Assembly: GCF_900105015.1 (NCBI RefSeq)
Contig: NZ_FNLK01000014.1
Coordinates: forward strand, 60,001 to 92,000
Direction of reading: 5' to 3'
Source: Schaalia meyeri
GTDB lineage: Bacteria; Actinomycetota; Actinomycetes; Actinomycetales; Actinomycetaceae
Length of the DNA stretch: 32,000 bases
The position numbers and the translations under genes are program-made. The notes beneath the pieces were generated by a model. It did no database searches and had not been told where the DNA came from. It was given only the letters and a program-made list of their open reading frames with translations. Of the stretch, positions 4,089-32,000 are shown in pieces (the first letter of the stretch is position 1; each line of letters begins with the position of its first letter).

Positions 4089-5393
4089 ATGCGCATCGCG
4101 GTCGTCGGGTTGGGCAAGATCGGTTTGCCGCTGGCGGTGCACTACGCGCGCGGGGGGCACGCGGTCGTCGGCGTGGATGTCAACCCGCGGACGGTGGCCC
4201 TGGTCAACCGCGGGGAGCCGCCCTTTCCGGGCGAGGCCCACCTGGCCGACTACCTGCCTGCCCTCACAGCATCCGCCTCCCTGCGCGCCACGACGGACTA
4301 CGCCGATGCGATCCCGGGAGCCGACGCCGTCATCGTGGTCGTCCCCCTCGTCGTGGATTCCCAGAGCCGTCCCGATTTCGCCAGCATGGACGCGGCCACC
4401 CGCTCCATCGCCGCCCACCTGACACCCGGCACGCTCGTCTCCTACGAGACGACCCTGCCCGTTGGGACCACGCGCGGGCGCTACAAGCCGCTCATCGAGC
4501 GGCATTCCGGCCTGGTGGAGGGGCGCGACTTCGACGTGGTGTTCTCCCCCGAGCGGGTCCTCACGGGCCGCGTGTTCGCCGACCTGGCCCGCTATCCGAA
4601 GCTGGTGGGCGGCCTGAGCGAGGCGGGCGAGGAACGGGGCGTTCGCTTCTACCGGTCAGTCCTTTCCTTTCATGAACGCGACGACCTGCCGCGGCCCAAC
4701 GGCGTGTGGCCCATGGGAGGGGCCGAAGCCGCCGAAATGGCCAAGCTCGCCGAAACCACCTATCGAGACGTCAACATCGGTTTGGCGAACCAGTTTGCCC
4801 GGTACGCGGATCGAATCGGCATCGACGTCGCGCGCGTCATCGAGGCCTGCAACTCCCAGCCCTACTCCCACATCCACCGGCCAGGCATCGCGGTCGGCGG
4901 CCACTGCATCCCCGTCTATCCGCGCCTGTACCTGGCCGGAGACCCCGACGCGACCATCGTGTCCACCGCCAGGGCAGCGAACGCGGCCATGCCCGCTTAC
5001 GCGGTCCACCGGGCGGCCTCGATGCTGGGATCCCTGGAGGGCCTGCGCGTCGCCGTTCTGGGGGCCGCCTACCGTGGTGGTGTCAAGGAAACGGCCTTCT
5101 CCGGTGTCGTCGGGGTCGTTGACGCCCTGCGAGCGGCGGGCGCCCGACCGCTGGTTCACGATCCCCTCTACGCGGACGCGGAACTCGTCGCCTTCGGGTG
5201 GGAGCCCTACCACCTGGGTGAACAGGTTGACGTCGCCATCGTCCAAGCCGACCACGCCGCCTACGCGGCCCTACGCCCCGGCGATCTGCCCGGCGTGCGC
5301 CTCCTCGTCGACGGCCGCGCCATCACGGATCCGCTCTTGTGGGTCGGGACCCCACGCATCACCATCGGCGGGGGAGGGGCGGCGCAATGCTAG
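4089..5393 (+). CDS. Nucleotide-sugar dehydrogenase (UDP-glucose/GDP-mannose dehydrogenase family)
   Basis: ATG 4089 is preceded by AAGGGGAGG. The N-terminal Rossmann motif is MRIAVVGLGKIGLPLA. The catalytic-Cys motif GGHCIPVYP is present. The upstream part of tracked ORF 3654..5393 is antisense to the GT gene. Confidence 0.85.
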   Translation: MRIAVVGLGKIGLPLAVHYARGGHAVVGVDVNPRTVALVNRGEPPFPGEAHLADYLPALTASASLRATTDYADAIPGADAVIVVVPLVVDSQSRPDFASMDAATRSIAAHLTPGTLVSYETTLPVGTTRGRYKPLIERHSGLVEGRDFDVVFSPERVLTGRVFADLARYPKLVGGLSEAGEERGVRFYRSVLSFHERDDLPRPNGVWPMGGAEAAEMAKLAETTYRDVNIGLANQFARYADRIGIDVARVIEACNSQPYSHIHRPGIAVGGHCIPVYPRLYLAGDPDATIVSTARAANAAMPAYAVHRAASMLGSLEGLRVAVLGAAYRGGVKETAFSGVVGVVDALRAAGARPLVHDPLYADAELVAFGWEPYHLGEQVDVAIVQADHAAYAALRPGDLPGVRLLVDGRAITDPLLWVGTPRITIGGGGAAQC

Positions 5394-6744: not shown

Positions 6745-8802
6745 ATGACTATGCGCTCCCCGTGGAGGACACTTGTAGCCGGGCTGACCCTGGCACTCGG
6801 CGCCACTGTCGCCGCCATTGTTCCATCGGCCCACGCGGCCGGCATCACCATCGCCATCGACCCCGGACACGGAGGTTCCGACCCCGGCGCAATCGCGAAC
6901 GGCCTGAAAGAAAAGGACCTGACCCTGGCGACCTCCCTGGCTCTCAAGGAGGAACTCGAGAGCTACGACGGCGTGCGCGTCGTCCTGACCCGCACGACGG
7001 ATACCAGGCCGTCTGAAAACACGAGCGCCGACCTATCTGCGCGCGTGCAGATGGCCGCCAGGGCCAATGCCGACGCGCTCGTGTCGATTCACTTCAACTC
7101 CGGCCCGCCCGCGGCCAGGGGCGCGGAGACCTGGTATCCGAACGCCTCCTCCTACAACTACTCCGCCCACACGCAGGGGCGGGCACTATCCAGCGCCATT
7201 CAGAGGCAACTGACGGGCCTGGGTCTGGCTGACCGCGGAATCAAGACGCGCGACAACCCGTACTACGACTACCCGGACGGCTCCACGGGCGACTACTACG
7301 CGATCAGCCGCCAGGCCCGCGAGAAAGGGATCCCCGGCATCATCGTCGAGCACGCGTTCCTCACCTCCTCCTCGGACGCGGCGCTCCTGCGCGATCCCGC
7401 CTTCGTGCGTTCCCTCGGCGTCGCAGACGCGACGGGCATCGCCCAAACCTACGGCCTGAGCAAGGGCAGGTGGGAAAAGTCCGGCGACAGCTGGCGTTTC
7501 CTCAGTAACGGCGTAGCCAAGACCGGCTGGTTCTCGGTGGGTGGACGCTGGTACTGGGCTGGCTCCGACGGGCGCACGATCCGCGGCTGGGCGACATTGG
7601 GCGGGCGCAGCTACTTCTTCGACGACAGCACCGCGATGGTGACGGGCTGGATGCGAGAAGATGGCAAGTGGTACTACCTGCGCTCGGGTGGCGACATGGC
7701 GACCGGATGGGTGAATCTGGGCGGTACCTGGTACTACCTGGACTCCAACGGCGTGATGGCCACCGGATGGCTCAACGACAAGGAACACTGGTACTGGCTG
7801 GGCGCATCCGGCGGCGCGGCCACGGGCTGGACGAAGGTTAACGGCTCGTGGTACCTGTTCGAAGACGATGCCCGCATGCTCACCGGCTGGCAGCTGACCG
7901 AGGACGACAACCAGTGGTACTACATGCACCCGAATGGGATCATGGCCACCGGATGGCTTAAGGACAAGGAACACTGGTACTGGCTGGACACGGACACGGG
8001 CGCGATGAAGAAGGGGTGGGTCAAGGTCGGCGGCACCTGGTACCACATGCAGCCCTCCGGCGCGATGAGCACCGGATGGCTGCTGGATGGGGCTACCTGG
8101 TACTGGCTGGACCCGAACTCGGGCGCGATGGCGACCGGCACCGTGACCGTCGAGGGACGCGCGTCGAACTTCTCGCCCTCGGGCGCCTGGCTGGGCTACG
8201 CGGCCGCCGGGTCCGACGCGTCGGCCCGCAGCGGACCCGGGCTGAATGCCGCGGGTCAGCGCCTCATTATGAGCGCGCCCACGGCCGCGCGCTCCGAGGT
8301 GATTGACGCCATGGTGAGCGCGTGGGAGGGCGCGGGTTACCCATACCCGAGCGCCCTGTCCTCCGGCGGTGCGGCATCGATCCGGGACTTCGCGGGTATC
8401 GTCTACGATGAGGCCGTGGCCGAGGGCGTGTCCCCCGAGCTCGTGTTCGTCCAGGCCATGAAGGAAACAGGCTGGCTGCGCTTCGGCGGCGACGTGAGTA
8501 TCGACCAGTTCAACTTCTCCGGCATCGGGGCGGTCGGCGGCGGCGCGCAGGGGGCGAGCTTCCCGGACGTGCGCACGGGCATCCGCGCCCAGGTTCAGCA
8601 CCTGCGCGCCTACGCGGACCCGACCGTGACCCCGTCGTCGCTCGCAAACCCGGTGGTGGACCCGCGCTTTTCCTACGTGCGTAAGGGCGTGGCCCCCGTG
8701 GTCGAGCACCTGGGTATCCAGGAAAATCCCGCCCGCGCCGGCTGGGCCGCTGCGCGAGGGTACGGGAACGATCTGGTGTCGATGATGAAGGCGTACTTCT
8801 AG
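6745..8802 (+). CDS. Secreted trimodular peptidoglycan hydrolase: N-acetylmuramoyl-L-alanine amidase (Amidase_3), cell-wall-binding repeats, and a C-terminal glucosaminidase-like domain
   Basis: A signal peptide ends ...SAHA/AG. Amidase_3 motifs are IAIDPGHGGSDPGA, VSIHFNS and IIVEHAFL. About 10 GW...WYY(L/M)...G.M.T repeats follow. The C-terminal FVQAMKETGWLRFGG...FNFSGIGA is typical of the mannosyl-glycoprotein endo-beta-N-acetylglucosaminidase family. ATG 6751 is an alternative start. Confidence 0.9.
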   Translation: MTMRSPWRTLVAGLTLALGATVAAIVPSAHAAGITIAIDPGHGGSDPGAIANGLKEKDLTLATSLALKEELESYDGVRVVLTRTTDTRPSENTSADLSARVQMAARANADALVSIHFNSGPPAARGAETWYPNASSYNYSAHTQGRALSSAIQRQLTGLGLADRGIKTRDNPYYDYPDGSTGDYYAISRQAREKGIPGIIVEHAFLTSSSDAALLRDPAFVRSLGVADATGIAQTYGLSKGRWEKSGDSWRFLSNGVAKTGWFSVGGRWYWAGSDGRTIRGWATLGGRSYFFDDSTAMVTGWMREDGKWYYLRSGGDMATGWVNLGGTWYYLDSNGVMATGWLNDKEHWYWLGASGGAATGWTKVNGSWYLFEDDARMLTGWQLTEDDNQWYYMHPNGIMATGWLKDKEHWYWLDTDTGAMKKGWVKVGGTWYHMQPSGAMSTGWLLDGATWYWLDPNSGAMATGTVTVEGRASNFSPSGAWLGYAAAGSDASARSGPGLNAAGQRLIMSAPTAARSEVIDAMVSAWEGAGYPYPSALSSGGAASIRDFAGIVYDEAVAEGVSPELVFVQAMKETGWLRFGGDVSIDQFNFSGIGAVGGGAQGASFPDVRTGIRAQVQHLRAYADPTVTPSSLANPVVDPRFSYVRKGVAPVVEHLGIQENPARAGWAAARGYGNDLVSMMKAYF
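7525..8136 (+). repeat. About 10 tandem ~20-aa cell-wall-binding (choline-binding/glucan-binding type) repeats inside the autolysin gene
   Basis: Ten consecutive units begin with GW (GWFSVGGRWYWAGSDGRTIR ... GWLLDGATWYWLDPNSGAMAT), with one degenerate unit on each side. Two 46-nt stretches (7756-7801 and 7942-7987) differ at only 2 positions. Confidence 0.85.
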
Positions 8803-10329: not shown

Positions 10330-10525
10330 GGTTCTTCCTTTACGTGCGGTGTTCTCGCGCGAACGCGACATTCCCTATAAATGTTAGCCGATCTGTACAC
10401 CAGCGGCGGCGCGCTTCGTCCCATCCGCGCACGGGAGCATCAAGTTGTGGAAAAATACCGTGGTGTAGGGATAATTGTCAGCGATGCGCGACCCGCACGA
10501 GGTCGCGCCGGGAAGCGGAGGCATC

Positions 10526-11398
10526 ATGAAAGGCATCATCCTGGCGGGCGGGTCAGGCACCCGACTCAACCCGATCACCCTGGGGACATCGAAGCAGCTG
10601 GTCCCCGTCTACGACAAGCCGATGATTTACTACCCCCTGTCGACCCTCATGCTGGCCGGCATTTCCGAGGTACTCGTCATCACTACGCCGCACGACGCGC
10701 CCTCCTTCCATCGCCTGCTCGGCGACGGAAGCCAACTGGGCGTCAGCATCTCCTACGCCGTCCAGCACGAGCCCAACGGCCTGGCCCAGGCCTTCGTGCT
10801 CGGCGCCGACCACGTCGGCAACGATGGCGCGGCCCTGGTCCTGGGCGACAACATTTTCTATGGCCCCGGCATGGGCACCCAGCTGCGTCGCCACGTCGAC
10901 CCCGACGGCGGCGCCGTCTTCGCCTACCACGTCTCCAACCCGCGCGAGTACGGCGTCGTCGAGTTCGACGAGGAGTTCAACGCGCTGTCGATTGAGGAAA
11001 AGCCGGAGCATCCCAAGTCGAACTACGCCGTGCCCGGCCTGTATTTCTACGACAACGACGTGGTGGATATCGCCCGCAACCTCAGGCCCAGCGCGCGCGG
11101 TGAATACGAGATCACCGACGTGAATCGTGCCTACCTGGAGGCGGGCAAGCTCAAGGTCGAGGTCCTACCGCGAGGCACCGCCTGGCTGGACACCGGCACT
11201 TTCGATTCCTTGGCCGACGCCACCTCCTTTGTGCGCACGGTCGAGGCTCGCCAGGGCATGAAGATCGGCGCCCCCGAAGAGGTCGCGTGGCGCATGGGTT
11301 TCATCGACGACGAGGGCCTGCGCCAGCGAGCGGAGCCCCTGGTTAAGTCCGGTTACGGATCCTATCTGCTCGAGCTCCTTGAGCGAGAGGGCCGCTGA
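10526..11398 (+). CDS. rmlA: Glucose-1-phosphate thymidylyltransferase
   Basis: ATG 10526 follows [57 protein letters not shown] is the canonical RmlA N-terminus. The protein is 290 aa. Confidence 0.95.
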
Positions 11399-24142: not shown

Positions 24143-24670
24143 ATGCCGAAGGAATGGAAGAAGCCTAAGCCCACGGAGGGGCAGCGTGCGAAGGCCGCAT
24201 CTGACGCAAAGAAGACGATCGCCCGCAACAAGAAGGCCCGTCACGACTACGCCATCGAGGATACCTGGGAGGCCGGGCTGGCCCTCATGGGAACCGAGGT
24301 GAAGGCCCTGCGGATGGGGCGTGCCTCGCTGGTGGACGCGTGGGTGGAGATCAACGGGGGAGAGGCGTGGCTGTACGGCGCGAATATCCCCCTGTATTCG
24401 CAGGGGTCGTGGACGAATCACGCCCCGACTCGCAAGCGTAAGCTCCTGCTGCACCGCGCCGAAATTGATCGCATGGCTGACCGCGTGGCCGCGAAGGGGT
24501 ACACGATCGTACCGCTTGAGCTGTATTTCATCGGTGGGCGCGTGAAGGTCGAGGTGGCCCTGGCCAAGGGCAAACAGGAGTGGGATAAGCGCCAGGCGCT
24601 GCGCGAGAAGCAGGACCAGCGTGAGGCTGAGCGCGCGATGCGCCGCTATGTCAAGCAGGCCCGCGGGTAA
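24143..24670 (+). CDS. smpB: SsrA-binding protein SmpB
   Basis: IARNKKARHDYAIEDTWEAGLALMGTEVKALR and the RKRKLLLHRAEI motifs are present. The C-terminal tail is basic. Confidence 0.95.
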   Translation: MPKEWKKPKPTEGQRAKAASDAKKTIARNKKARHDYAIEDTWEAGLALMGTEVKALRMGRASLVDAWVEINGGEAWLYGANIPLYSQGSWTNHAPTRKRKLLLHRAEIDRMADRVAAKGYTIVPLELYFIGGRVKVEVALAKGKQEWDKRQALREKQDQREAERAMRRYVKQARG

Positions 24671-24788: not shown

Positions 24789-24842
24789 GATGTGTCCGAC
24801 GGCCTGCGGCTTTGCGGGGCGTCGGGAGTTGAAAACTCAAGA

Positions 24843-25220
24843 GGGGATGATCGGTTTCGACAGTGGTCGTCGATCGAAGTGAAGCGAGCCGAGGATGTGC
24901 GCTCAACTCGTTAACGATGCGTGCAAACCAATAGGTGCCGAACAGAATCGCACCGACTACGTTCTCGCTGCCTGATATCGCAGCCTGAACCTTTAGTCCG
25001 TCAGCCCGGGAGCTGCTTCCGGCCCGGTGTCTGGCGTCGTCTAGGGAGCCACTGGGTGCCGCCCATGTTGGTGGGGCGGCTCCGACACTTAATCAACTGA
25101 GCCTATCCGGCAGTGAGTCTACGCGGATGCCGGGGGCCGAGAAATAAAACCGTAGACTGCGCTCGGAGAAGAATTCGGGGCCGGCTATTGGACGGGGGTT
25201 CGATTCCCCCCATCTCCACC
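24843..25220 (+). ncRNA. ssrA: tmRNA (SsrA)
   Basis: The 5' GGGGATGATCGGTTTCGAC pairs with the 3' ...GGACGGGGGTTCGATTCCCCCCATCTCCACC, giving an acceptor stem with a G3:U pair and a T-arm. The internal tag ORF at 24937-24975 encodes AEQNRTDYVLAA followed by a stop. The gene lies directly downstream of smpB. Confidence 0.9.
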
Positions 25221-25225
25221 CTACA

Positions 25226-25256
25226 CCCCGGAATCTCGTTGAGATTCCGGGGTTTT
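25226..25256 (+). terminator. Rho-independent terminator of ssrA
   Basis: A perfect 12-bp stem (CCCCGGAATCTC / GAGATTCCGGGG) with loop GTT is followed by TTTT. Confidence 0.85.
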
Positions 25257-25334
25257 CATTGTCATTTAGCAGGTTTTACCCCCTCGTGCGCACAGCGCGC
25301 ACGTATCAGGAAATATCAGGATGTACCACCCTGA

Positions 25335-25379
25335 GTGGCGCAGGTGTGGCGCAGACAGTGGAAAAAGATGCTGCGCCAC
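25335..25379. repeat. Three copies of GTGGCGCAG (two direct with an 11-bp phase, one inverted) just upstream of the integrase remnant
   Basis: Copies lie at 25335-25343 and 25346-25354 (direct) and as CTGCGCCAC at 25371-25379 (inverted). The extended 11-nt complement is GAGTGGCGCAG (25333-25343) against CTGCGCCACTC (25371-25381). Confidence 0.6.
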
Positions 25380-25398
25380 TCGACGTGGAGGAGTGCTC

Positions 25399-25755
25399 AT
25401 GAACACCCGCCGATCGTTCGGCTCAATCCGCAAAAACCGCGCAGGCAGGTATGAGGCCCGCTACACCGGACCCGACGGCGGCAAATACACTGCCGGCGAC
25501 AGCTTCACCCGTAAGGGCGACGCCAGCTCCTTCCTGGCCCGCGTCGAGGCTGAGATCAGCACCGGACGCTGGATCAGCCCCAAGTATGCCCGCGAGCGCG
25601 CCGAGGCGCGAATGCTCTCGCTCGACGCTGTGCTGTGGCCGTCCGCTGATCAGGTTTTCGAAGATAATTCCAACCAGACCGATCAGGGCGCCGACGACGA
25701 CATTATCGAGTTGGACCCACGGCACCGCCGCGCTCACCTTCACTCACTTTCGTAG
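25399..25755 (+). pseudogene. Truncated tyrosine recombinase (phage-type integrase): N-terminal arm-binding region only
   Basis: MNTRRSFGSIRKNRAGRYEARYTGPDGGKYTAGDSFTRKGDASSFLARVEAEISTGRWISP matches the conserved N-terminus of actinobacterial island/phage integrases. After about 75 aa the sequence turns unrelated and stops at 118 aa. No catalytic R..HxxR..Y domain appears in any frame nearby. Confidence 0.7.
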
Positions 25756-26713
25756 CTAACGCGTTAGCGGCGACACATATGAAAGGGTCGACACCATCAA
25801 GGAAACGGTGACGGAACTGGACTTGGGGGTGCTCGTCTAGGTTGACTGCCAAGCGACAGACACGTGACCTGAACAGGCAAAGACATCCAGGGTCTCAGCC
25901 AGCTCATCCACGCGGCGAGTGAATATCCCCGCCGGGTGGTAAGTCAGCCATCACCGTGATCATGGCCGCCTCGGAGCAATCACGGCGCTGGCCAAACCTC
26001 TGAGGGAAGTAGCAGCCAGAGTACAGCTTGGAGAAAGCAACACAGATCGCGCCATCCCCGCTATCCAACGCCCAATGCTGGAACCCGTTACGCATGAGTC
26101 ATGCGATCAGGGGAGTGCTATCCCACTCAGCCTCCCCCACATGCTGCCCCAGCATCAGCCAACAACAACACGGTCATTGCGCTGTGTGGCAGCGAACGCA
26201 TCAAATCCGGGGACGCCTCAACCATAGCCTCGTCCGGCAAACCAGCAGGAGCGATCAACTTGAGGCGAGGTCGTCGTAGTGCCTCCAAGCGCTTCGAGTC
26301 GCAAGCAAAGAGCATTCCCGAAGACTCGCAGAGACCATACCCACATTCGCAAGGCCGACCAATACGCGCTCACGCCACCACGCGGAACACTACTCCAACC
26401 CTGCGGGGCTCGTGATTGGCGCGGGTGAAACCGCCGCCGCCCCTGCTGCCCGTAAAACCGCGTTTTCAGCTGGTTCTGGTCTCGCTGGGGAGGTCTTGGT
26501 TTCATGTCCTCCCCGGTGAGATGGTGCCGGGGTGATGTGGGTTTCAGGTTTGCTCTGCAGTTGGTGGGTGGATACTCGTGGTGTAACCCTTTGTCGCCCC
26601 TGCGCCGACACCTCGGAGCGTTGGCCTCACGTGACAACGTGCGGGCGCAGGTCGAGGATTGTTTCGTGATGAGTTGTTGGTGATGTCCGTGACGGGTGGG
26701 CGCGGAATTGCTG

Positions 26714-26742
26714 TTGCCATTATATACCCCCGGGGGTATTAT
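26714..26742 (+). promoter_or_regulatory. Promoter TTGCCA-17 nt-TATTAT whose spacer and -10 hold a perfect 16-bp palindrome ATACCCCCGGGGGTAT (CsoR/CstR-type operator)
   Basis: -35 is at 26714-26719, -10 at 26737-26742, and the palindrome at 26724-26739. The site is ~55 nt upstream of the reductase ATG. A G/C tract flanked by an ATAC/GTAT dyad is the architecture reported for CsoR/RcnR-family operators. Confidence 0.6.
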
Positions 26743-26795
26743 CGGGAGTGTTGCAGCAGACACCACTTCATTCAGAGACAGAAAGTGAGCGACAT

Positions 26796-28466
26796 ATGCG
26801 AGTAGTAGTCGTCGGAGGCGTCGCGGGCGGCATGAGCGCGGCGGCGCGCCTGCGTCGCCGTGACGAGACTGCGCAGATCATCGTCCTGGAACGGGGCAGC
26901 TACGTTTCGTTCGCAAACTGTGGCCTTCCGTACTACGTCAGCGGTGAGATCGCCGATCCCGCCAAGCTGCTCCTGCACACTCCGCAATCCCTGAAGGCAG
27001 CCCTCAACCTGGATGTGCGGATCAACTCCGAGGTCACCGGGATCGACTCCGGCGAACACTGCGTCAAGGTCGCCAGCACAGACACCGGCGAAACCTACAC
27101 GCTCTCCTACGATCATCTGATCCTTTCCCCCGGGGCATTCGCCAACCGTCCCCCGATCGAGGGTCTGGACTCCCCGCGCGTACGTACCCTCCGCACGGTC
27201 GATGACGCGCTCGCGCTTCGACAGGCTCCGGGCGCTCGCGCTGTCGTCTTGGGTGCCGGTTTCGTTGGCGTCGAAGCCGCCGAGGCGCTCGCGTGCCGTG
27301 GTCTTGAGACGCACCTCGTCGAGTTCGCTGACCACGTCTTACCGCCGCTTGAGGTCGAGATGGCAACGCTGGTAACGGAGGAGCTCCGTAACCTCGGCAT
27401 TCAGGTCCACGCCGGCGTCGCCGCCCGGACCATTGCGCGCGGCGAGGAATGCGATTCCGTGACACTTTCCGACGGTACCGTGCTGCACGCCGACGTCATC
27501 GTCCTATCGACGGGCGTGCGCCCAGATACGGCGTTCGTCGAGGCTGCAGGTATCGAAACCAGCCGCGGCTATATCCTCATCGATCGCCAGGGGCACACCA
27601 GCGCTGACAACATCTACGCCATCGGAGACGGAACTATCGGCCCAGATGAGGAACGCCCAGTCACGCTGGCGGGCCCAGCGAACCGTGGCGGCCGCCTAAT
27701 CGCAGACGCGATAGCCGACCGAGAACACGGCACCGATACTGCCCGTCGCATTCCGAAGCCGCAGGGCACGGCGATTGTTCGGGTCGGCACGCGGACTGCT
27801 GCCATGACCGGTGCTAACCGCGCGACCCTGGATGCGGCGGGCATCGAATACTTCACGGTGCACACGCACGCGAACCAGCACGCGGGCTATTTCCCGGGCG
27901 CGCAGCCGGTACACATTCTCATGCACGTGGGCGTCGATGGCGAGATTCTTGGCGCGCAAGCTGTGGGCGTTGACGGCGTGGACCGGCGTATTGACGTCAT
28001 CGCGACCGCGATGCGAGCTCGCCTGAAAGCCGCGGACCTGATTGATCTGGATCTGGCGTACTCACCACCATACGGCCAAGCCAAAGACCCGGTGAACCAG
28101 ACCGGTATGGTTGCCCACAACGTGTTGACCGGGGAGCTGGCACTGACCAGCCCGAGCGAGCTAACCGAGGATACGCCGGTACTGGACGTACGCTCGGCAG
28201 CCGAATATGCGGCCGGCCACATGAGAAAATCGTTGAACATTCCACATACTGAGCTGCGCGACCGCCTCGACGAGGTGCGAGCCTGGGTCGACGAAGAAGT
28301 TGGTGACCGGCCATTCGTCGTCATGTGCGCTGCCGGCGTGCGTTCATGGATTGGCTACCGCATTGTGCGTGCGGCAGGCTTCAACGTAACCATGCTGTCG
28401 GGGGGCATCCAGTCGCTGCGAGCATGGCTCGGTGACCGTTCGGGCGCCGTGCTGGTCAAGGGGTAG
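26796..28466 (+). CDS. CoA-disulfide/persulfide reductase fused to a C-terminal rhodanese domain (CoADR-RHD / Npsr / CoAPR type)
   Basis: ATG 26796. The FAD motif is VVVVGGVAGGMSAA, the redox Cys is in SFANCGLPYY, and the NAD(P)H motif is VVLGAGFVGVE. The rhodanese active-site loop VVMCAAGVRS lies in the last ~100 aa. Confidence 0.9.
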   Translation: MRVVVVGGVAGGMSAAARLRRRDETAQIIVLERGSYVSFANCGLPYYVSGEIADPAKLLLHTPQSLKAALNLDVRINSEVTGIDSGEHCVKVASTDTGETYTLSYDHLILSPGAFANRPPIEGLDSPRVRTLRTVDDALALRQAPGARAVVLGAGFVGVEAAEALACRGLETHLVEFADHVLPPLEVEMATLVTEELRNLGIQVHAGVAARTIARGEECDSVTLSDGTVLHADVIVLSTGVRPDTAFVEAAGIETSRGYILIDRQGHTSADNIYAIGDGTIGPDEERPVTLAGPANRGGRLIADAIADREHGTDTARRIPKPQGTAIVRVGTRTAAMTGANRATLDAAGIEYFTVHTHANQHAGYFPGAQPVHILMHVGVDGEILGAQAVGVDGVDRRIDVIATAMRARLKAADLIDLDLAYSPPYGQAKDPVNQTGMVAHNVLTGELALTSPSELTEDTPVLDVRSAAEYAAGHMRKSLNIPHTELRDRLDEVRAWVDEEVGDRPFVVMCAAGVRSWIGYRIVRAAGFNVTMLSGGIQSLRAWLGDRSGAVLVKG

Positions 28467-28474
28467 GACAGCGC

Positions 28475-28780
28475 ATGGCAACGCACGCACAGATCGTGAA
28501 TCGTCTCAAACGTGCTCGCGGGCAACTCGATGGCCTCATCGCACAACTAGAGAGCGGGGATGCGAACTGCCGGGATGTGCTGACTCAGTTCGCAGCAGTT
28601 AATTCCGCGGTGCGCCGTGCCAGCTACCTCGCGGTCGCGACGGTCATGTCGCAGTGCGCACTCGAGATCGCCGACTCAGAAGACGAAGGCGCCCGCGCGG
28701 CTGCGAAGCCGGAGCCGATTGTGAAAACGGACAAGATAACGATCAAAGAACTCGAGCAACTGTTCCTCAGCCTGGCCTGA
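28475..28780 (+). CDS. CsoR/RcnR-family repressor, CstR-like (two-Cys, no-His sensing site)
   Basis: The family pattern is VNRLKRARGQLDGLIAQLE...CRDVLTQFAAVNSAVRRA...SQCALE. Both conserved Cys are present. The position four residues before the second Cys, which is His in Cu-sensing CsoR, is Val here. The gene starts 8 nt after the reductase stop. Confidence 0.8.
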   Translation: MATHAQIVNRLKRARGQLDGLIAQLESGDANCRDVLTQFAAVNSAVRRASYLAVATVMSQCALEIADSEDEGARAAAKPEPIVKTDKITIKELEQLFLSLA

Positions 28781-28873
28781 GGCCAACACGAATCCGCTTC
28801 GAAAACAGATTCTTCCAACAACACGCAACGAATCCACAGCGGATCCGAGGCGCAACATCATAAGGAGAAAACA

Positions 28874-29053
28874 ATGTGTCGACCAACTGTCTGCGAGGTG
28901 TGTGGCAAGACCACGTGGAAAGGATGCGGTCAGCATATCGACAAGGTGAAGGCGACAGTTCCCGCAGACCAGTGGTGCAACGGACAACACACCGACGAGG
29001 AACGCTCCGCTGTCCGCGGGAAACGCGGCCTGTTCGGATGCTTCTTCCGCTGA
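28874..29053 (+). CDS. Small Cys-rich protein (59 aa, below the ORF-track cutoff)
   Basis: A perfect AAGGAG lies 5 nt upstream of ATG 28874. The translation is MCRPTVCEVCGKTTWKGCGQHIDKVKATVPADQWCNGQHTDEERSAVRGKRGLFGCFFR (6 Cys, 2 His). The CxxC...GCGQH N-terminus resembles a small conserved actinobacterial protein family (from memory, unverified). Confidence 0.6.
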   Translation: MCRPTVCEVCGKTTWKGCGQHIDKVKATVPADQWCNGQHTDEERSAVRGKRGLFGCFFR

Positions 29054-29197
29054 GCGGCCGACCCGCCTCCGCGCGGTGGGTGACCTGAAACCCAGTGGGA
29101 AGCAGGTGCTTGACGCAGTCGTAGACGAGTGGGACATCCCTGTGGCTGCGGGCCATGGGATATCCGGGGTGAATCTCATCAAGTTCGCACCTGACGG

Positions 29198-29227
29198 GTC
29201 CGACACCGCCGTCAGGCGGTGTCGGAC
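29198..29227. other. Perfect 13-bp stem hairpin (GTCCGACACCGCC-GTCA-GGCGGTGTCGGAC)
   Basis: Read directly from the sequence. There is no flanking T-tract on either strand. It may be the terminator of a lost minus-strand gene, because a 22-codon minus-strand remnant ending ...GLAKAIAATLSDTA stops inside the loop. Confidence 0.4.
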
Positions 29228-29392
29228 AGAGTCGCGGCGATCGCCTTAGCTAGGCCGGTGCGCGTGTCAGTGACACTCACGAGATCATTGCGCTACGCCG
29301 CGAGGCGGGAACCCACTCATCGCTCTTGTTGGGTGGGGGTGCCACAGTGCCAGGCCCTATTCTTCTCTGCAAGACGGACGTATCATTGAGTC

Positions 29393-29758
29393 ATGAGGTG
29401 GGCGACAAGATCAACGTGGGCTCGCATCGGCGTGCTGTTCAGCATCTACCTGCTGATTCCGGCACTCTGGTCTGGCTTCTCGAGCGGCTCGGAAGTAACT
29501 GAGGTCGTGAAAGGCCTCGCGTTCCTGATCCTGCTCGTCATCTTGCCGCTGGTTGCTATTGGAATAGGTGCCTGGGATGGCGTGAAGGAAGGCTTCAGCC
29601 TCCTGTGGGTGCTTGCGCCATTCCTGTGTTTTCTGGCGCCGATGTTTCTGTTCTTCAACGAAAGCGCCCTCATCTATGGGGCGGCCTACAGCGTCCTCGG
29701 TGTCGCAGCTCATGCCCTCGGCGCGTTTGTCTATTCGCGTCGCCGTGGGCGGGTGTGA
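29393..29758 (+). CDS. Hypothetical small integral membrane protein (about 4 TM helices)
   Basis: 121-aa ORF with four hydrophobic segments and a basic C-terminus (SRRRGRV). I recognise no family. Codon usage looks coding-like, but no strong SD is seen. Confidence 0.45.
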   Translation: MRWATRSTWARIGVLFSIYLLIPALWSGFSSGSEVTEVVKGLAFLILLVILPLVAIGIGAWDGVKEGFSLLWVLAPFLCFLAPMFLFFNESALIYGAAYSVLGVAAHALGAFVYSRRRGRV

Positions 29759-29773
29759 TGGTCGTAGGTCGCT

Positions 29774-29874
29774 GCGGATAGGAAACGGCCTCGTGGATAG
29801 GTTATGGGCATCTGGATAGCTTATTTTCCTATCCACGTGGCTATAACCTATCCGCAAGAAGACAACCTATCCGC
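29774..29874. repeat. Iteron-like array: six GGATAGG sites on a 19-bp phase, three forward then three inverted
   Basis: GGATAG starts at 29776, 29795 and 29814 on the + strand. CCTATCC starts at 29828, 29847 and 29866. The outer pair is GCGGATAGG / CCTATCCGC. The middle pair is GTGGATAGGTTAT / ATAACCTATCCGC, matching at 12 of 13 positions. The spacers between sites are not conserved. Confidence 0.8.
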
Positions 29875-30089
29875 GAGTAGCGCTCGTGGGTGTCGTTGAC
29901 CGCGTTCTCGTACCCAGCTCGGCGAGGGGGTGGGGCGCGTGCGCTTCCTCGATAGCCGCCACGGGTGGTCGCGGCTCCATCTGGCTGTGGCGGGGACTTG
30001 ACGCAGCTCATGGCCTCGCCTGTCAAACCGTTGCTCCCCAATATGTTCCCGGAGAAATGGGTAGCATTGATGCGAACGGAGGTACCGAC

Positions 30090-30734
30090 ATGGCCTTTGA
30101 TTTCAAAAAGGAATATAAGGAACTCTATGCGCCCAAGAAGGGGCCGAGCATCGTCGAGGTGCCGCGCATGACGTACGTGGCTGTGCGCGGCAGCGGCGAC
30201 CCCAACGAGCAGGGTGGGGCCTACCAGCGGGCGATCGCCACCCTGTACGGGGTCTCCTACGCGATCAAGATGAGCAAGAAAGGGGCGCGCGAGATCGACG
30301 GCTACTTCGACTTTGTCGTGCCGCCGCTCGAAGGGTTTTGGTGGCAGGACAATGTCAGGGGAGTCGACTACGCCCACAAGGAGACCTTCAACTGGATCTC
30401 GGTCATCCGCCTCCCCGACTTCGTGACCCGCGAGGACTTCTGCTGGGCCGTAGAGGAAGCGACCAAGAAAAAGAAGATGGACTTTTCCGCAGCCGAGTAT
30501 CTGACGATCGACGAGGGGCTGTGCGTGCAATGCATGCACGTCGGAAGCTACGACGATGAACCCGCCACTGTCGAGGCCATGCACGCCTACGTGGAAGAGA
30601 ACGGATACGCGCTCGACCTGACGGATGATCGCCTGCATCATGAAATCTACCTGGGGGATGCTCGCAAGGTTGCCCCCGAGAAACTCAGGACGGTCATTCG
30701 TCACCCGGTGAAGCGGGTGAATGCCACCCTCTGA
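30090..30734 (+). CDS. GyrI-like small-molecule-binding domain protein
   Basis: ATG 30090 follows GGAGG. MAFDFKKEYKELYAPKKGPSIVEVPRMTYVAVRGSGDPNE... and ...HHEIYLGDARKVAPEKLRTVIRHPV are typical of stand-alone GyrI-like (SOUL/AraC-effector-fold) proteins. The upstream part of tracked ORF 29886..30734 is not protein-like. Confidence 0.8.
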   Translation: MAFDFKKEYKELYAPKKGPSIVEVPRMTYVAVRGSGDPNEQGGAYQRAIATLYGVSYAIKMSKKGAREIDGYFDFVVPPLEGFWWQDNVRGVDYAHKETFNWISVIRLPDFVTREDFCWAVEEATKKKKMDFSAAEYLTIDEGLCVQCMHVGSYDDEPATVEAMHAYVEENGYALDLTDDRLHHEIYLGDARKVAPEKLRTVIRHPVKRVNATL

Positions 30735-30864
30735 GGGCGGTTGGGCGGTCGCCCCTCTCGCGGGTGAGTCTTTCCGGGCCTTATCGGCGGCGGTGAACCT
30801 GCTGGCTTGGAAACCATTTCCCGGGTACTGTTGGCCTGTTGACCCCTACATGAAGGAGCAGAAG

Positions 30865-31182
30865 ATGCTAGTTGTCACGACCCCAACTGTCGAAGGCATG
30901 CCGATTAAGCAGTACATCGGGATGGTGTCGGGCGAGACTTTCGCCGGCGTCAACATGTTCAAGGACTTTGGTGCTGGCCTGTCCAACATGTTCGGCGGGC
31001 GTGCCTCCCAGTACGAGGAGGAAATCGGAAACGCGTCCGCGACCGCCGTCAACGAGATGTGCACCCGCGCCCAAGCCATGGGAGCGAACGCCGTCGTCGG
31101 GGTGAAGGTCGACTACTTCACGGCCGGAACCAACAACGGCATGCTCGCCGCAATCGCGACCGGTACGGCGGTCATTCTCTGA
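30865..31182 (+). CDS. YbjQ/UPF0145-family protein ('heavy-metal-binding' domain)
   Basis: AAGGAG lies 6 nt upstream of ATG 30865. MLVVTTPTVEGMPIKQYIGMVSGE...GANAVVGVKVDY...GTAVIL is the characteristic YbjQ pattern. The protein is 105 aa. Confidence 0.85.
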   Translation: MLVVTTPTVEGMPIKQYIGMVSGETFAGVNMFKDFGAGLSNMFGGRASQYEEEIGNASATAVNEMCTRAQAMGANAVVGVKVDYFTAGTNNGMLAAIATGTAVIL

Positions 31183-31242
31183 TTGGCCGTTGTTGGCGAT
31201 AGCCCGAAACTTCGCGGTGGATTGGTTAGTTGTGTGGGTGGG

Positions 31243-31279
31243 CCCGCGTCCCTGGAGTTTTCTGGGGGCGCGGGTTTTT
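31243..31279 (+). terminator. Rho-independent terminator after the YbjQ-family gene
   Basis: A 10-bp stem (CCCGCGTCCC / GGGGGCGCGGG, one G:U pair) with a ~10-nt loop is followed by TTTTT (31275-31279). Confidence 0.75.
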
Positions 31280-31320
31280 GTGTGTGGGTGATGGTGGGTG
31301 GGGTTTGGTTTGGTTGATCC

Positions 31321-31356
31321 TGTGGGTGTGGGTGTGGGTGTGGGTGTGGGTGTGGG
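31321..31356 (+). repeat. Perfect hexanucleotide microsatellite (TGTGGG)x6
   Basis: Six exact tandem copies read directly from the sequence. They are flanked by further degenerate GT-rich sequence. Confidence 0.95.
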
Positions 31357-31535
31357 TGTGTGGTGTGTTGGTTAAAGTCTCAGTGTTTTTTCAGGCTGTA
31401 TTGTCGTTGTGGCAAGGTTGGTTTTTTATGGTTGGTGTTGTCACAAGGGAATACGGCACGGGCCGCTGGGGTCCGGGGTATGCCGACGAGATATTTTTGA
31501 GGAGCCTTCTGGGAGTACTTGCACTGTGTTGATGG

Positions 31536-31579
31536 GATATGCTGTGGGGCCGACCGAGAGGTCGGCCCCACAGCATATC
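31536..31579. repeat. Perfect 20-bp-stem palindrome (GATATGCTGTGGGGCCGACC-GAGA-GGTCGGCCCCACAGCATATC)
   Basis: Read directly from the sequence. It produces the mirrored artefactual ORFs (MLWGRP.GRPHSIS) on both strands. Confidence 0.9.
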
Positions 31580-31884
31580 TGCGCTTTGTTCCAGTCGTGG
31601 AAGGAAGGATCGTTGGAGATGGGAAGCGCGCCTCTGCGCTGCACCGCTCGAAGCAGACGAATGCGCCGGTCGCGGCCTGTTTCACGGTCGCGATGAGCTG
31701 AACGATTGGGAAGTTTGGGTGACGTGTGGCACATAATGTGGGATTTTGAGATCAAAATGGGTGGCATTTTCGTGAAATCCGCGAAATTTGGCACTAAAGT
31801 CGGCGAAATGGCCGGAGATTTCGTAGTGTGTGTTTCGAGGCCACGACAGTGGTAACCAAGAACGAACAGGAATGAGGTTTCTCA

Positions 31885-32000
31885 ATGTCCGTGAACCGTA
31901 CCGAGCTTGTCGCTCAGATTGCCGAACGCGCCGACCTGACCAAGGCGAAGGCCGACGAGGCCCTGGCTGCCTTCCAGGCCGTCCTCGTTGAGTCCCTGGC
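31885..32000 (+). CDS. hup: HU-family nucleoid-associated DNA-binding protein, N-terminal part (3' end lies outside the window)
   Basis: ATG 31885. MSVNRTELVAQIAERADLTKAKADEALAAFQAVLVESL is the canonical HU/IHF N-terminus. Confidence 0.85.
   Translation, partial: MSVNRTELVAQIAERADLTKAKADEALAAFQAVLVESL

Follow-up and report, generated by a model that had tools for sequence, protein, structure and literature searches.

In a 32,000-nucleotide stretch of Schaalia meyeri DNA (contig NZ_FNLK01000014.1, positions 60,001 to 92,000; the whole stretch is referred to as the window), we identified a 107-bp modular palindrome, built of three forward and three inverted 19-bp modules, that is almost certainly a member of an interspersed family of repeats. 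The limits of the element, 29771-29877, follow from the sequence and from the family model R1, and its dyad centre lies at 29824. Selection in this family appears to act on the sequence and phase of the modules and not on pairing between the two arms, so that the modules are most likely recognition sites in duplex DNA.

A preliminary description of the window had reported six phased sites with dyad symmetry, and this arrangement was confirmed exactly. The forward-strand cores GGATAGG (29776-29782), GGATAGG (29795-29801) and GGATAGC (29814-29820) are followed by three inverted cores that read CCTATCC on the top strand (29828-29834, 29847-29853 and 29866-29872); both triplets are phased at exactly 19 bp, and the cores form three mirrored pairs around the common centre. 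A triple GGATAG at 19-bp spacing occurs once per strand in the window, compared with 0.00 occurrences in 100 dinucleotide-preserving shuffles. The heptamer GGATAGG itself occurs 8 times vs. 1.96 expected, and the 3 occurrences beyond the array are singletons. Taken each in its own orientation, the sites read GC/GT/CT/GT/GC/GC-GGATAG(G/C)-AAAC/TTAT/TTAT/AAAA/TTAT/TTGT, that is, their similarity exceeds the heptamer, and the two inner spacers agree at 8 of 12 positions.

The outer left module 1 (29771-29789, plus strand) consists of the leader GCTGC, the core and a divergent tail, AAACGGC; the tail variant GGATAGGAA(A/G)CG is also found in orthologous copies of one metagenome clade (L148, L167, L172 and others). 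Module 2 (29790-29808, plus strand; leader CTCGT, tail TTATGGG) follows the consensus, and module 3, the inner left one (29809-29827, plus strand; leader CATCT), contains the core GGATAGC, a form that the inner-left core takes in many family copies. Modules 3 and 4 have a 7-nt A/T centre, TTATTTT (29821-29827), in common, from which the inner right module 4 (29821-29839, minus strand) extends through its core to the leader ACGTG (29835-29839). On the minus strand, module 5 (29840-29858) reads CTTGC-GGATAGG-TTATAGC and the outer right module 6 (29859-29877) reads ACTCGC-GGATAGG-TTGTCTT. The sequence-only model R1 matched the window at 29772-29877 (83.4 bits, E = 1.8 × 10−25), and no other copy was found in the 32 kb.

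Across the family, 191 modules yield the consensus SATSC-GGATAGG-TTAT (positions -5 to +10), followed by 3 free positions. The module is asymmetric and not self-complementary, and 16 of its 19 positions are conserved, so that the original statement that only the 7-13-bp cores are conserved proved too narrow. Copies were collected by requiring that the inner core starts lie 15 bp apart, and the window copy has that spacing; the centre between the inner cores is A/T-rich. A summary tally gives 2-5 forward and 1-4 inverted modules per copy. Among 76 distinct copies, the length ranges from 69 to 145 bp (median 107), the 3+3 form is the commonest (36 of 76), and the arms, which comprise 1 to 6 modules, differ by no more than one module in 69 of 76 copies. 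The spacing of same-strand modules is 19 or 38 bp in 310 of the 319 intervals. Close relatives differ by whole modules (2+3 vs. 2+4, 2+2 vs. 3+2, and 5+3 vs. 4+3). At the free positions, neighbouring modules of the same arm are more similar to each other (0.45) than modules in other pairings (0.28-0.35), which fits replication slippage, and partner modules on opposite arms are no more similar than non-partners. The G+C content of the element is ~50%, vs. roughly 60-75% for the genome.

To delineate the family, one genome per species was scanned for a pattern of three GGATAGG at 10-14-nt gaps. Among the matches listed, the same dyad is present at many loci, several per genome, and family copies occur only in Actinomycetaceae (Schaalia/Pauljensenia group). 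Carriers include Actinomyces sp. ICM47, HPA0247 and HMSC035G02, Schaalia odontolytica UMB0018, Pauljensenia sp. and related metagenome-assembled genomes (MAGs). With this strict pattern, there are at least ~3-5 copies per genome, and the taxonomic range is likewise a lower bound. Matches of the pattern in other phyla were unrelated tandem repeats with periods of 5-21, and a sequence-only model built from 31 copies scored above 30 bits, among the scanned matches, for Actinomycetaceae loci only. The element is also carried by five IMG/VR contigs. A blastn search with the unit returned no match in 72,556 PLSDB plasmids or 50,697 INPHARED phages beyond chance 19-29-nt matches. A record labelled 'Sanguibacter keddieii strain 250_SKED' (NZ_JVOJ01...; L048, L067 and L106) carries Schaalia-type elements; their flanks look orthologous to flanks in Actinomyces sp. 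HPA0247, HMSC035G02 and a MAG (L048 corresponding to L086, and L067 to L061 and L111), so that this record is probably mislabelled or contaminated.

All copies are intergenic. The genes beside copies other than that of the window encode glycyl-tRNA synthetase, ribosomal protein L9, a GluRS-like enzyme, MurB, methionine aminopeptidase, RNase H and a Cys/Met pyridoxal-phosphate enzyme, and ksgA- and rpfB-like genes, identified by eye, are further flanking genes; such varied housekeeping neighbours indicate that the family is a chromosome-wide intergenic repeat. No neighbour gene recurs across independent loci, apart from generic ABC ATPase paralogues and orthologous flanks, and in particular no rep, par, recombinase or transposase gene is recurrent near the copies. 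PADLOC found nothing among the neighbour genes and the genes bracketed by copies. A different dispersed repeat of ~100-280 bp recurs close to copies in several genomes (L131 7698-7980, L032 4558-4841, L034 1986-2316, L076 571-692, L060 3036-3112) and matches no Rfam family in the scanned loci (L131, L032, L034).

The window copy begins 13 nt past the stop codon of a gene for a 121-aa DUF2651 membrane protein (29393-29758, PF10852), with the first core 18 nt past it, and ends 212 bp before a gene for a GyrI-like protein (30090-30734, PF06445). The small membrane protein upstream and the GyrI-like protein downstream are the neighbours that had been described at the outset, and the view that the binder is not encoded next door agrees both with these two genes and with the lack of a gene recurrent near the copies.

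We compared this locus with 65 metagenome loci that contain DUF2651 relatives 58-72% identical to the window protein. The element after DUF2651 is present in 48 fetched loci, and in most of the 65 it lies just past the DUF2651 stop, with the first core -5 to +171 nt from the stop codon. Comparison of 41 distinct orthologous sequences shows hardly any variation in the core columns, and variation at the free positions and in the flanks; the right arms of two lineage groups are told apart by gtatccgcataac vs. gtatccgcgtaac. Such lineage-specific variable bases point to vertical descent, because overwriting from other copies would erase this signal. Given that neutral intergenic DNA should be unrecognisable at this divergence, we infer that the sequence and phase of the modules are subject to purifying selection at the DUF2651 locus. 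By comparison, five metagenome contigs with an identical GyrI-like protein also have an identical intergenic region and are therefore uninformative.

Where the locus seemed empty, an inserted NADAR-type gene (PF22397) precedes the element, which lies ~930 bp further along. The two truly empty alleles (L139 and L156) read tacGCGGATAtgtcc, where filled relatives read GCGGATAGG...element...cgcGCGGATCTGTC; these alleles look like deletions between GCGGAT microhomologies and not like pre-insertion sites. A further allele, L170, retains one module only. The gene 3' of the DUF2651 copy varies by lineage, being GyrI-like in the window and a methyltransferase or NADAR-type gene elsewhere. In four loci (L158, L159, L177 and L194), the TAG within the first GGATAG is the DUF2651 stop codon, so that the element overlaps the end of the coding sequence (first core at -5). 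The orphan NADAR-type gene, which belongs to a DarT1-associated antitoxin family and has AT-rich flanks, lies between DUF2651 and the element (L090 2736-3377; L138, L147, L155, L186 and L196 ~4400-5290). Its insertion replaces the last ~46 bp of DUF2651, and the right junction coincides with the element's outer border. In L090, a duplication places the element, together with ~300 bp of its right flank, on both sides of the NADAR-type gene.

The window unit folds as a long imperfect hairpin (121-nt region; -29.6 kcal/mol and z = -6.3 as DNA, -59.5 kcal/mol and z = -7.0 as RNA). We imposed the full mirror-image helix on 31 copies and, as a control, dealt the right arms among the copies. Paired cells amounted to 76.4% within copies vs. 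a mean of 78.1% after shuffling, with 499 of the 500 shuffles at least as high, and in these 31 copies every measure of covariation was at or below the shuffled values. The presence of the same consensus in both orientations thus makes pairing a by-product, and the free bases form mismatched internal loops in the hairpin. Rfam gave no gathering-score match for the window and 6 related loci, and only chance-level miRNA matches (E ~1) at E up to 10; the 'Actinomyces-1' RNA motif, a different RNA that contains a k-turn, was rejected. We found no terminator-like or promoter-like sites in 29300-30300, and with no U-tract in this interval and ~50% G+C in the element, an intrinsic terminator was also rejected. 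The preliminary description had favoured a protein-recognition array over a structured RNA or CRISPR array, and the conservation of module and phase, the lack of covariation between the arms and the lack of an Rfam match fit that view.

Gene orientation was taken from rough open reading frame (ORF) calls, based on the G+C content at third codon positions (GC3), at ~15 independent loci with genes on both sides. By these rough calls, ~10 loci are co-directional, 5 convergent and 0 divergent; if divergent regions make up a quarter of all intergenic ones, 0/15 has a probability of ~0.01. In several lineages, the operon that contains DUF2651 and a CoA-disulfide-reductase-type flavoprotein (CoADR) is enclosed by two copies, the second one being located ~110-150 bp upstream of the leading gene (L164 801-897, L182 783-898, L186 1542-1655, L128 4821-4898, L191 3738-3853). 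Several of these loci also have a 129-aa DUF2651 paralogue at the operon start. A decayed second copy was not found upstream of the window CoADR gene, where the next best model match scores 4 bits. Low-GC3 accessory genes adjoin copies or are bracketed by them: apart from the NADAR-type gene, this applies to a low-GC3 DUF4230 gene that lies between two copies in L032 (3308-5092), with ksgA- (rRNA dimethyltransferase) and rpfB-like (resuscitation-promoting factor) genes, assigned by eye, on the flanks. The element thus stands at the border where conserved DNA gives way to variable DNA.

Under the reading that we prefer, the modules are predicted recognition sites for a sequence-specific, clade-specific protein encoded elsewhere in the genome. 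This protein would form two opposed oligomers, aligned head to tail within an arm and meeting head to head at the centre; at ~1.8 helical turns per 19 bp, successive proteins would spiral around the helix. The arms gain and lose whole 19-bp modules, presumably by replication slippage, and the bound array could serve as a boundary, be it a roadblock, an insulator or a recombination edge. As the copies lie at gene 3' ends, often at a conserved/variable edge, a boundary role of the bound array is probable, whereas a role as a promoter operator probably does not apply. We put the chances that the family acts by binding a protein, with a role at host level, at about even. A more specific proposal is speculative and unlikely to hold: two opposed trimers or oligomers would use the arrays, with their ~3+3 phased sites, as landing pads, and the arrays would mark chromosomal boundaries around operons and accessory-gene cassettes and would either insulate these or serve as edges for the capture or exchange of new DNA.

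Several considerations weigh against a host-level role through protein binding. The uniformity of the family could be the work of a mobilising enzyme and not of host function, and each copy folds into a long hairpin, which may betray a single-strand or RNA role. Furthermore, with ~1.8 helical turns per 19 bp, successive sites face different sides of the helix, which is unusual for simple cooperative operators. The number of at least ~3-5 copies per genome is a lower bound, and the orientation count comes from rough ORF calls.

Of the alternatives, we assign a modest but appreciable probability to a selfish REP/REPIN-like element or MITE (miniature inverted-repeat transposable element), in which the modules would be sites for a transposase encoded once elsewhere (RAYT-like or multi-site DDE) and the conservation of their sequence would reflect what that enzyme can mobilise, not host function. 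The copies are dispersed, intergenic and palindromic and are confined to one clade. Eight copies from the genome and viral scans lie within ~610 bp of a contig end, as is typical of repeats; copies are found at rearrangement junctions; and one copy has an IS3-family OrfA gene at a distance of 166 bp, in line with the frequent targeting of REP-type repeats by insertion sequence (IS) elements. However, a search of 33 copies for target-site duplications (direct repeats of 2-9 bp at offsets 0-11) gave no signal above mismatched-flank controls, so that of the features of a MITE, the inverted terminal arms are present and the flanking duplication is absent. No transposase gene recurs near the copies, and among the matches listed, we saw no lone arms, such as the ends of an autonomous parent would be. 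Copies within one genome differ at the variable bases and accordingly show no trace of having been copied and pasted recently, the clean empty alleles resemble deletions at microhomologies and not pre-insertion sites, and the orthologous copy keeps its cores over deep divergence, unlike an inactive selfish copy. The preliminary description had allowed for a dispersed MITE- or REP-like element with target-site duplications, or for a unit absent from close relatives: dispersal was indeed found, but the duplications were not, and relatives show strong conservation of the unit.

An RNA or single-stranded-DNA hairpin at the 3' end of the upstream transcript, acting as a terminator or, like REP and BOX, protecting from 3' exonucleases, appears unlikely. 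The strong folding, the balanced arms, the position close behind the DUF2651 stop in the relatives, and the absence of copies between divergent genes in the rough gene calls are all compatible with such a function. On the other hand, there is no covariation, and the variable bases become mismatches in internal loops; the primary sequence and the exact 19-bp spacing are conserved, although a hairpin needs neither; there is no U-tract, terminator-like site or Rfam match; and some copies lie upstream of operons.

It is quite improbable that the array is a local multi-operator for the GyrI-like and YbjQ genes or for the CoADR-CsoR-DUF2651 operon. Its location 212 bp upstream of the GyrI-like gene and the second copy upstream of the CoADR/DUF2651 operon in several lineages agree with this possibility, but the array stays in place when the downstream gene changes (GyrI-like, methyltransferase or NADAR-type), other copies lie beside unrelated housekeeping genes, and no promoter-like site was found in or beside the array. 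The operon, moreover, already has what appears to be a palindromic operator of the CsoR type at 26724-26739.

The possibility with the least to recommend it, and one that we consider scarcely credible, is an orphaned iteron origin, partition centromere or recombinase arm-site cluster of a decayed island at the tmRNA gene: in unit size, the 19-bp head-to-tail repeats match plasmid iterons such as those of P1 and F, an integrase N-terminal remnant lies beside the tmRNA gene ~4 kb away, and on three IMG/VR prophage-type contigs, copies are located 1.5-2.3 kb from a short tyrosine recombinase gene, but the family is multi-copy, chromosomal and located beside core genes, gave 0 matches among the plasmids and phages searched, and has no rep, par or int gene adjacent or recurrent. 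In the IMG/VR prophage copies, the flanks are rearranged and contain other repeats, and no tRNA is near. Thus, the orphaned ori, par or att site envisaged in the preliminary description is rejected for a multi-copy, chromosomal element that is orthologous across the clade and lacks rep, par or recombinase neighbours.

The smpB gene (24143-24670) and the tmRNA gene (24843-25221) are followed by a 118-aa ORF adjoining the latter (25399-25755), in which one annotation matched the integrase N-terminal family PF26003 and no other domain, and a second Pfam scan of the window matched none. After this remnant, there is ~1 kb of apparently non-coding DNA. A decayed integrative element is present at the tmRNA gene, with no repeat of the tmRNA 3' end anywhere in 24800-32000. 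The array and the preceding DUF2651 gene are also located downstream of a tmRNA gene in L034, a locus of another genome, and the copy is conserved across the clade, which argues that the array does not derive from a recent island.

Comparison with known systems shows that the family is of the interspersed intergenic palindromic repeat kind and lacks a defining feature of each known family tested. Like the REP/BIME/REPIN elements of proteobacteria, it consists of short, clade-specific intergenic palindromes that lie at gene 3' ends, are rarely found between divergent genes, form mosaics of oriented units, are (here putatively) bound by protein, coincide with hot spots of rearrangement and IS insertion, and lack target-site duplications. 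It is thus interspersed, extragenic and palindromic and avoids divergent regions as REPs do, but its unit is not itself a stem-loop: it is an asymmetric 19-bp module, arranged in two opposed stacks around one fixed centre, the known copy number is low, the hosts are Actinomycetota, and no RAYT-type gene was seen near the copies. The BOX elements of Streptococcus pneumoniae are similarly modular, interspersed and intergenic, vary in the number of internal modules, can form a long hairpin and are without a known transposase; BOX, however, is composed of three modules of ~45-60 nt (boxA-boxB(n)-boxC), whereas the present family has a single, mirrored 19-bp module, and the sequences are unrelated. 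MIRU-type variable-number tandem repeats (VNTRs) of mycobacteria are likewise actinobacterial intergenic repeats with whole-unit copy changes between close strains, but their units of 46-101 bp are repeated directly in tandem only, without a dyad, and some overlap small ORFs.

With plasmid iterons of 17-22 bp and their inverted-repeat operators, the arrays have in common the ~19-bp unit, the head-to-tail phase, the conserved core with a short variable part, the monomer-type asymmetric sites and the additional presence of the inverted orientation. Of the two hallmarks of an iteron origin, however, the 17-22-bp direct repeats are present and the adjacent rep gene at a single plasmid or replicon locus is not; the arrays are multi-copy and chromosomal and absent from the plasmid collection. 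Multi-site transposon ends (the TnsB sites of Tn7, Mu, and the 19-bp repeats of Tn402/Tn5053) also consist of phased ~19-22-bp sites that are opposed at two ends, but these ends flank kilobases of cargo and produce 5-bp target duplications, whereas in the family, the 'ends' abut, no duplication is found, and the module number varies.

We rejected several other candidates. No parA/parB or parM/parR genes lie within ~5 kb of the array in the window or recur near copies, which speaks against a partition centromere of the parC/parS type, and a tyrosine-recombinase att site is incompatible with an integrase remnant 4 kb away, the lack of a tmRNA 3' repeat in 24800-32000 and the lack of an integrase at most copies. 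CRISPR arrays require 23-47-bp repeats with unique spacers, whereas here the period is 19 bp with ~3 variable bases and inverted halves. For an integron attC site, the sequence is too strongly conserved and no integrase is near, the two copy-bracketed accessory genes being a loose resemblance only. Three further resemblances to known motifs were rejected: the DnaA box, TGTGGATAA, differs from the typical TSCGGATAG at 2-3 positions in most modules; the DtxR/IdeR iron box has TAGGTTA in common with the modules, but the inverted halves of the arrays are 2 bp closer, and most modules are direct repeats; and in an array of CsrA GGA repeats, the arms would pair with each other. To our knowledge, Actinomycetota have no CsrA. 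In the literature searched, by sequence as well as by topic, such a repeat is not described for Actinomycetaceae.

The genes upstream of DUF2651 in the window encode the CoADR-type flavoprotein with a rhodanese domain (26748-28466), a CsoR-family repressor (28475-28780) and a 59-aa Cys-rich protein (MCRPTVCEVCGKTTWKGCGQH...; 28874-29053) without a Pfam match; as related loci have the last ORF in the same position, between the CsoR-like gene and DUF2651, it probably encodes a genuine small operon protein. The sequence ATATACCCCCGGGGGTATTAT (26722-26742), immediately upstream of the CoADR-rhodanese gene (26748), contains the palindrome ATACCCCCGGGGGTAT (26724-26739), which resembles what we take to be a CsoR/CstR-type operator, presumably for the repressor encoded at 28475-28780, and a similar motif precedes the CoADR gene in L191. 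Downstream of the array, the GyrI-like gene is followed by a gene for a YbjQ-family protein. The window region is 99.5% identical to CP012072.1, which we take to be Actinomyces (Schaalia) meyeri W712. A ~365-bp segment that is single in the window (31215-31580) is double in CP012072.1 (L001 ~7110-7474 and 10381-10750), where the two copies flank a gene for a 906-aa LRR/choline-binding protein. This gene is absent from the window, so that the strain of the window differs from CP012072.1, and its presence or absence is a strain polymorphism that arises by recombination between direct repeats. The window also contains a G/T-rich microsatellite-like run of GTGGGT/GGGTGT units (31298-31362) and a perfect 20-bp inverted repeat with a 4-nt loop (31536-31579) in the non-coding DNA that precedes an HU-like gene with a start near 31886.

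Much work has been devoted to the interspersed intergenic repeats of proteobacteria and streptococci. The family described here is of unusually regular build, with one 19-bp module, an exact phase and mirrored arms centred on 3+3, and its conservation separates selection on sequence from selection on pairing, which makes it a clean case for finding a trans-acting factor. The carriers are abundant human oral commensals and, as indicated in a preprint (bioRxiv 10.1101/2024.07.17.604004), include the host species of the Saccharibacteria epibiont TM7x. In practical terms, the elements interrupt assemblies, change in 19-bp steps as VNTR markers do, and indicate junctions of accessory-gene turnover. 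If the arrays were indeed landing pads for opposed protein oligomers, they would constitute a chromosome-wide protein-array system without a described counterpart in Actinomycetota.

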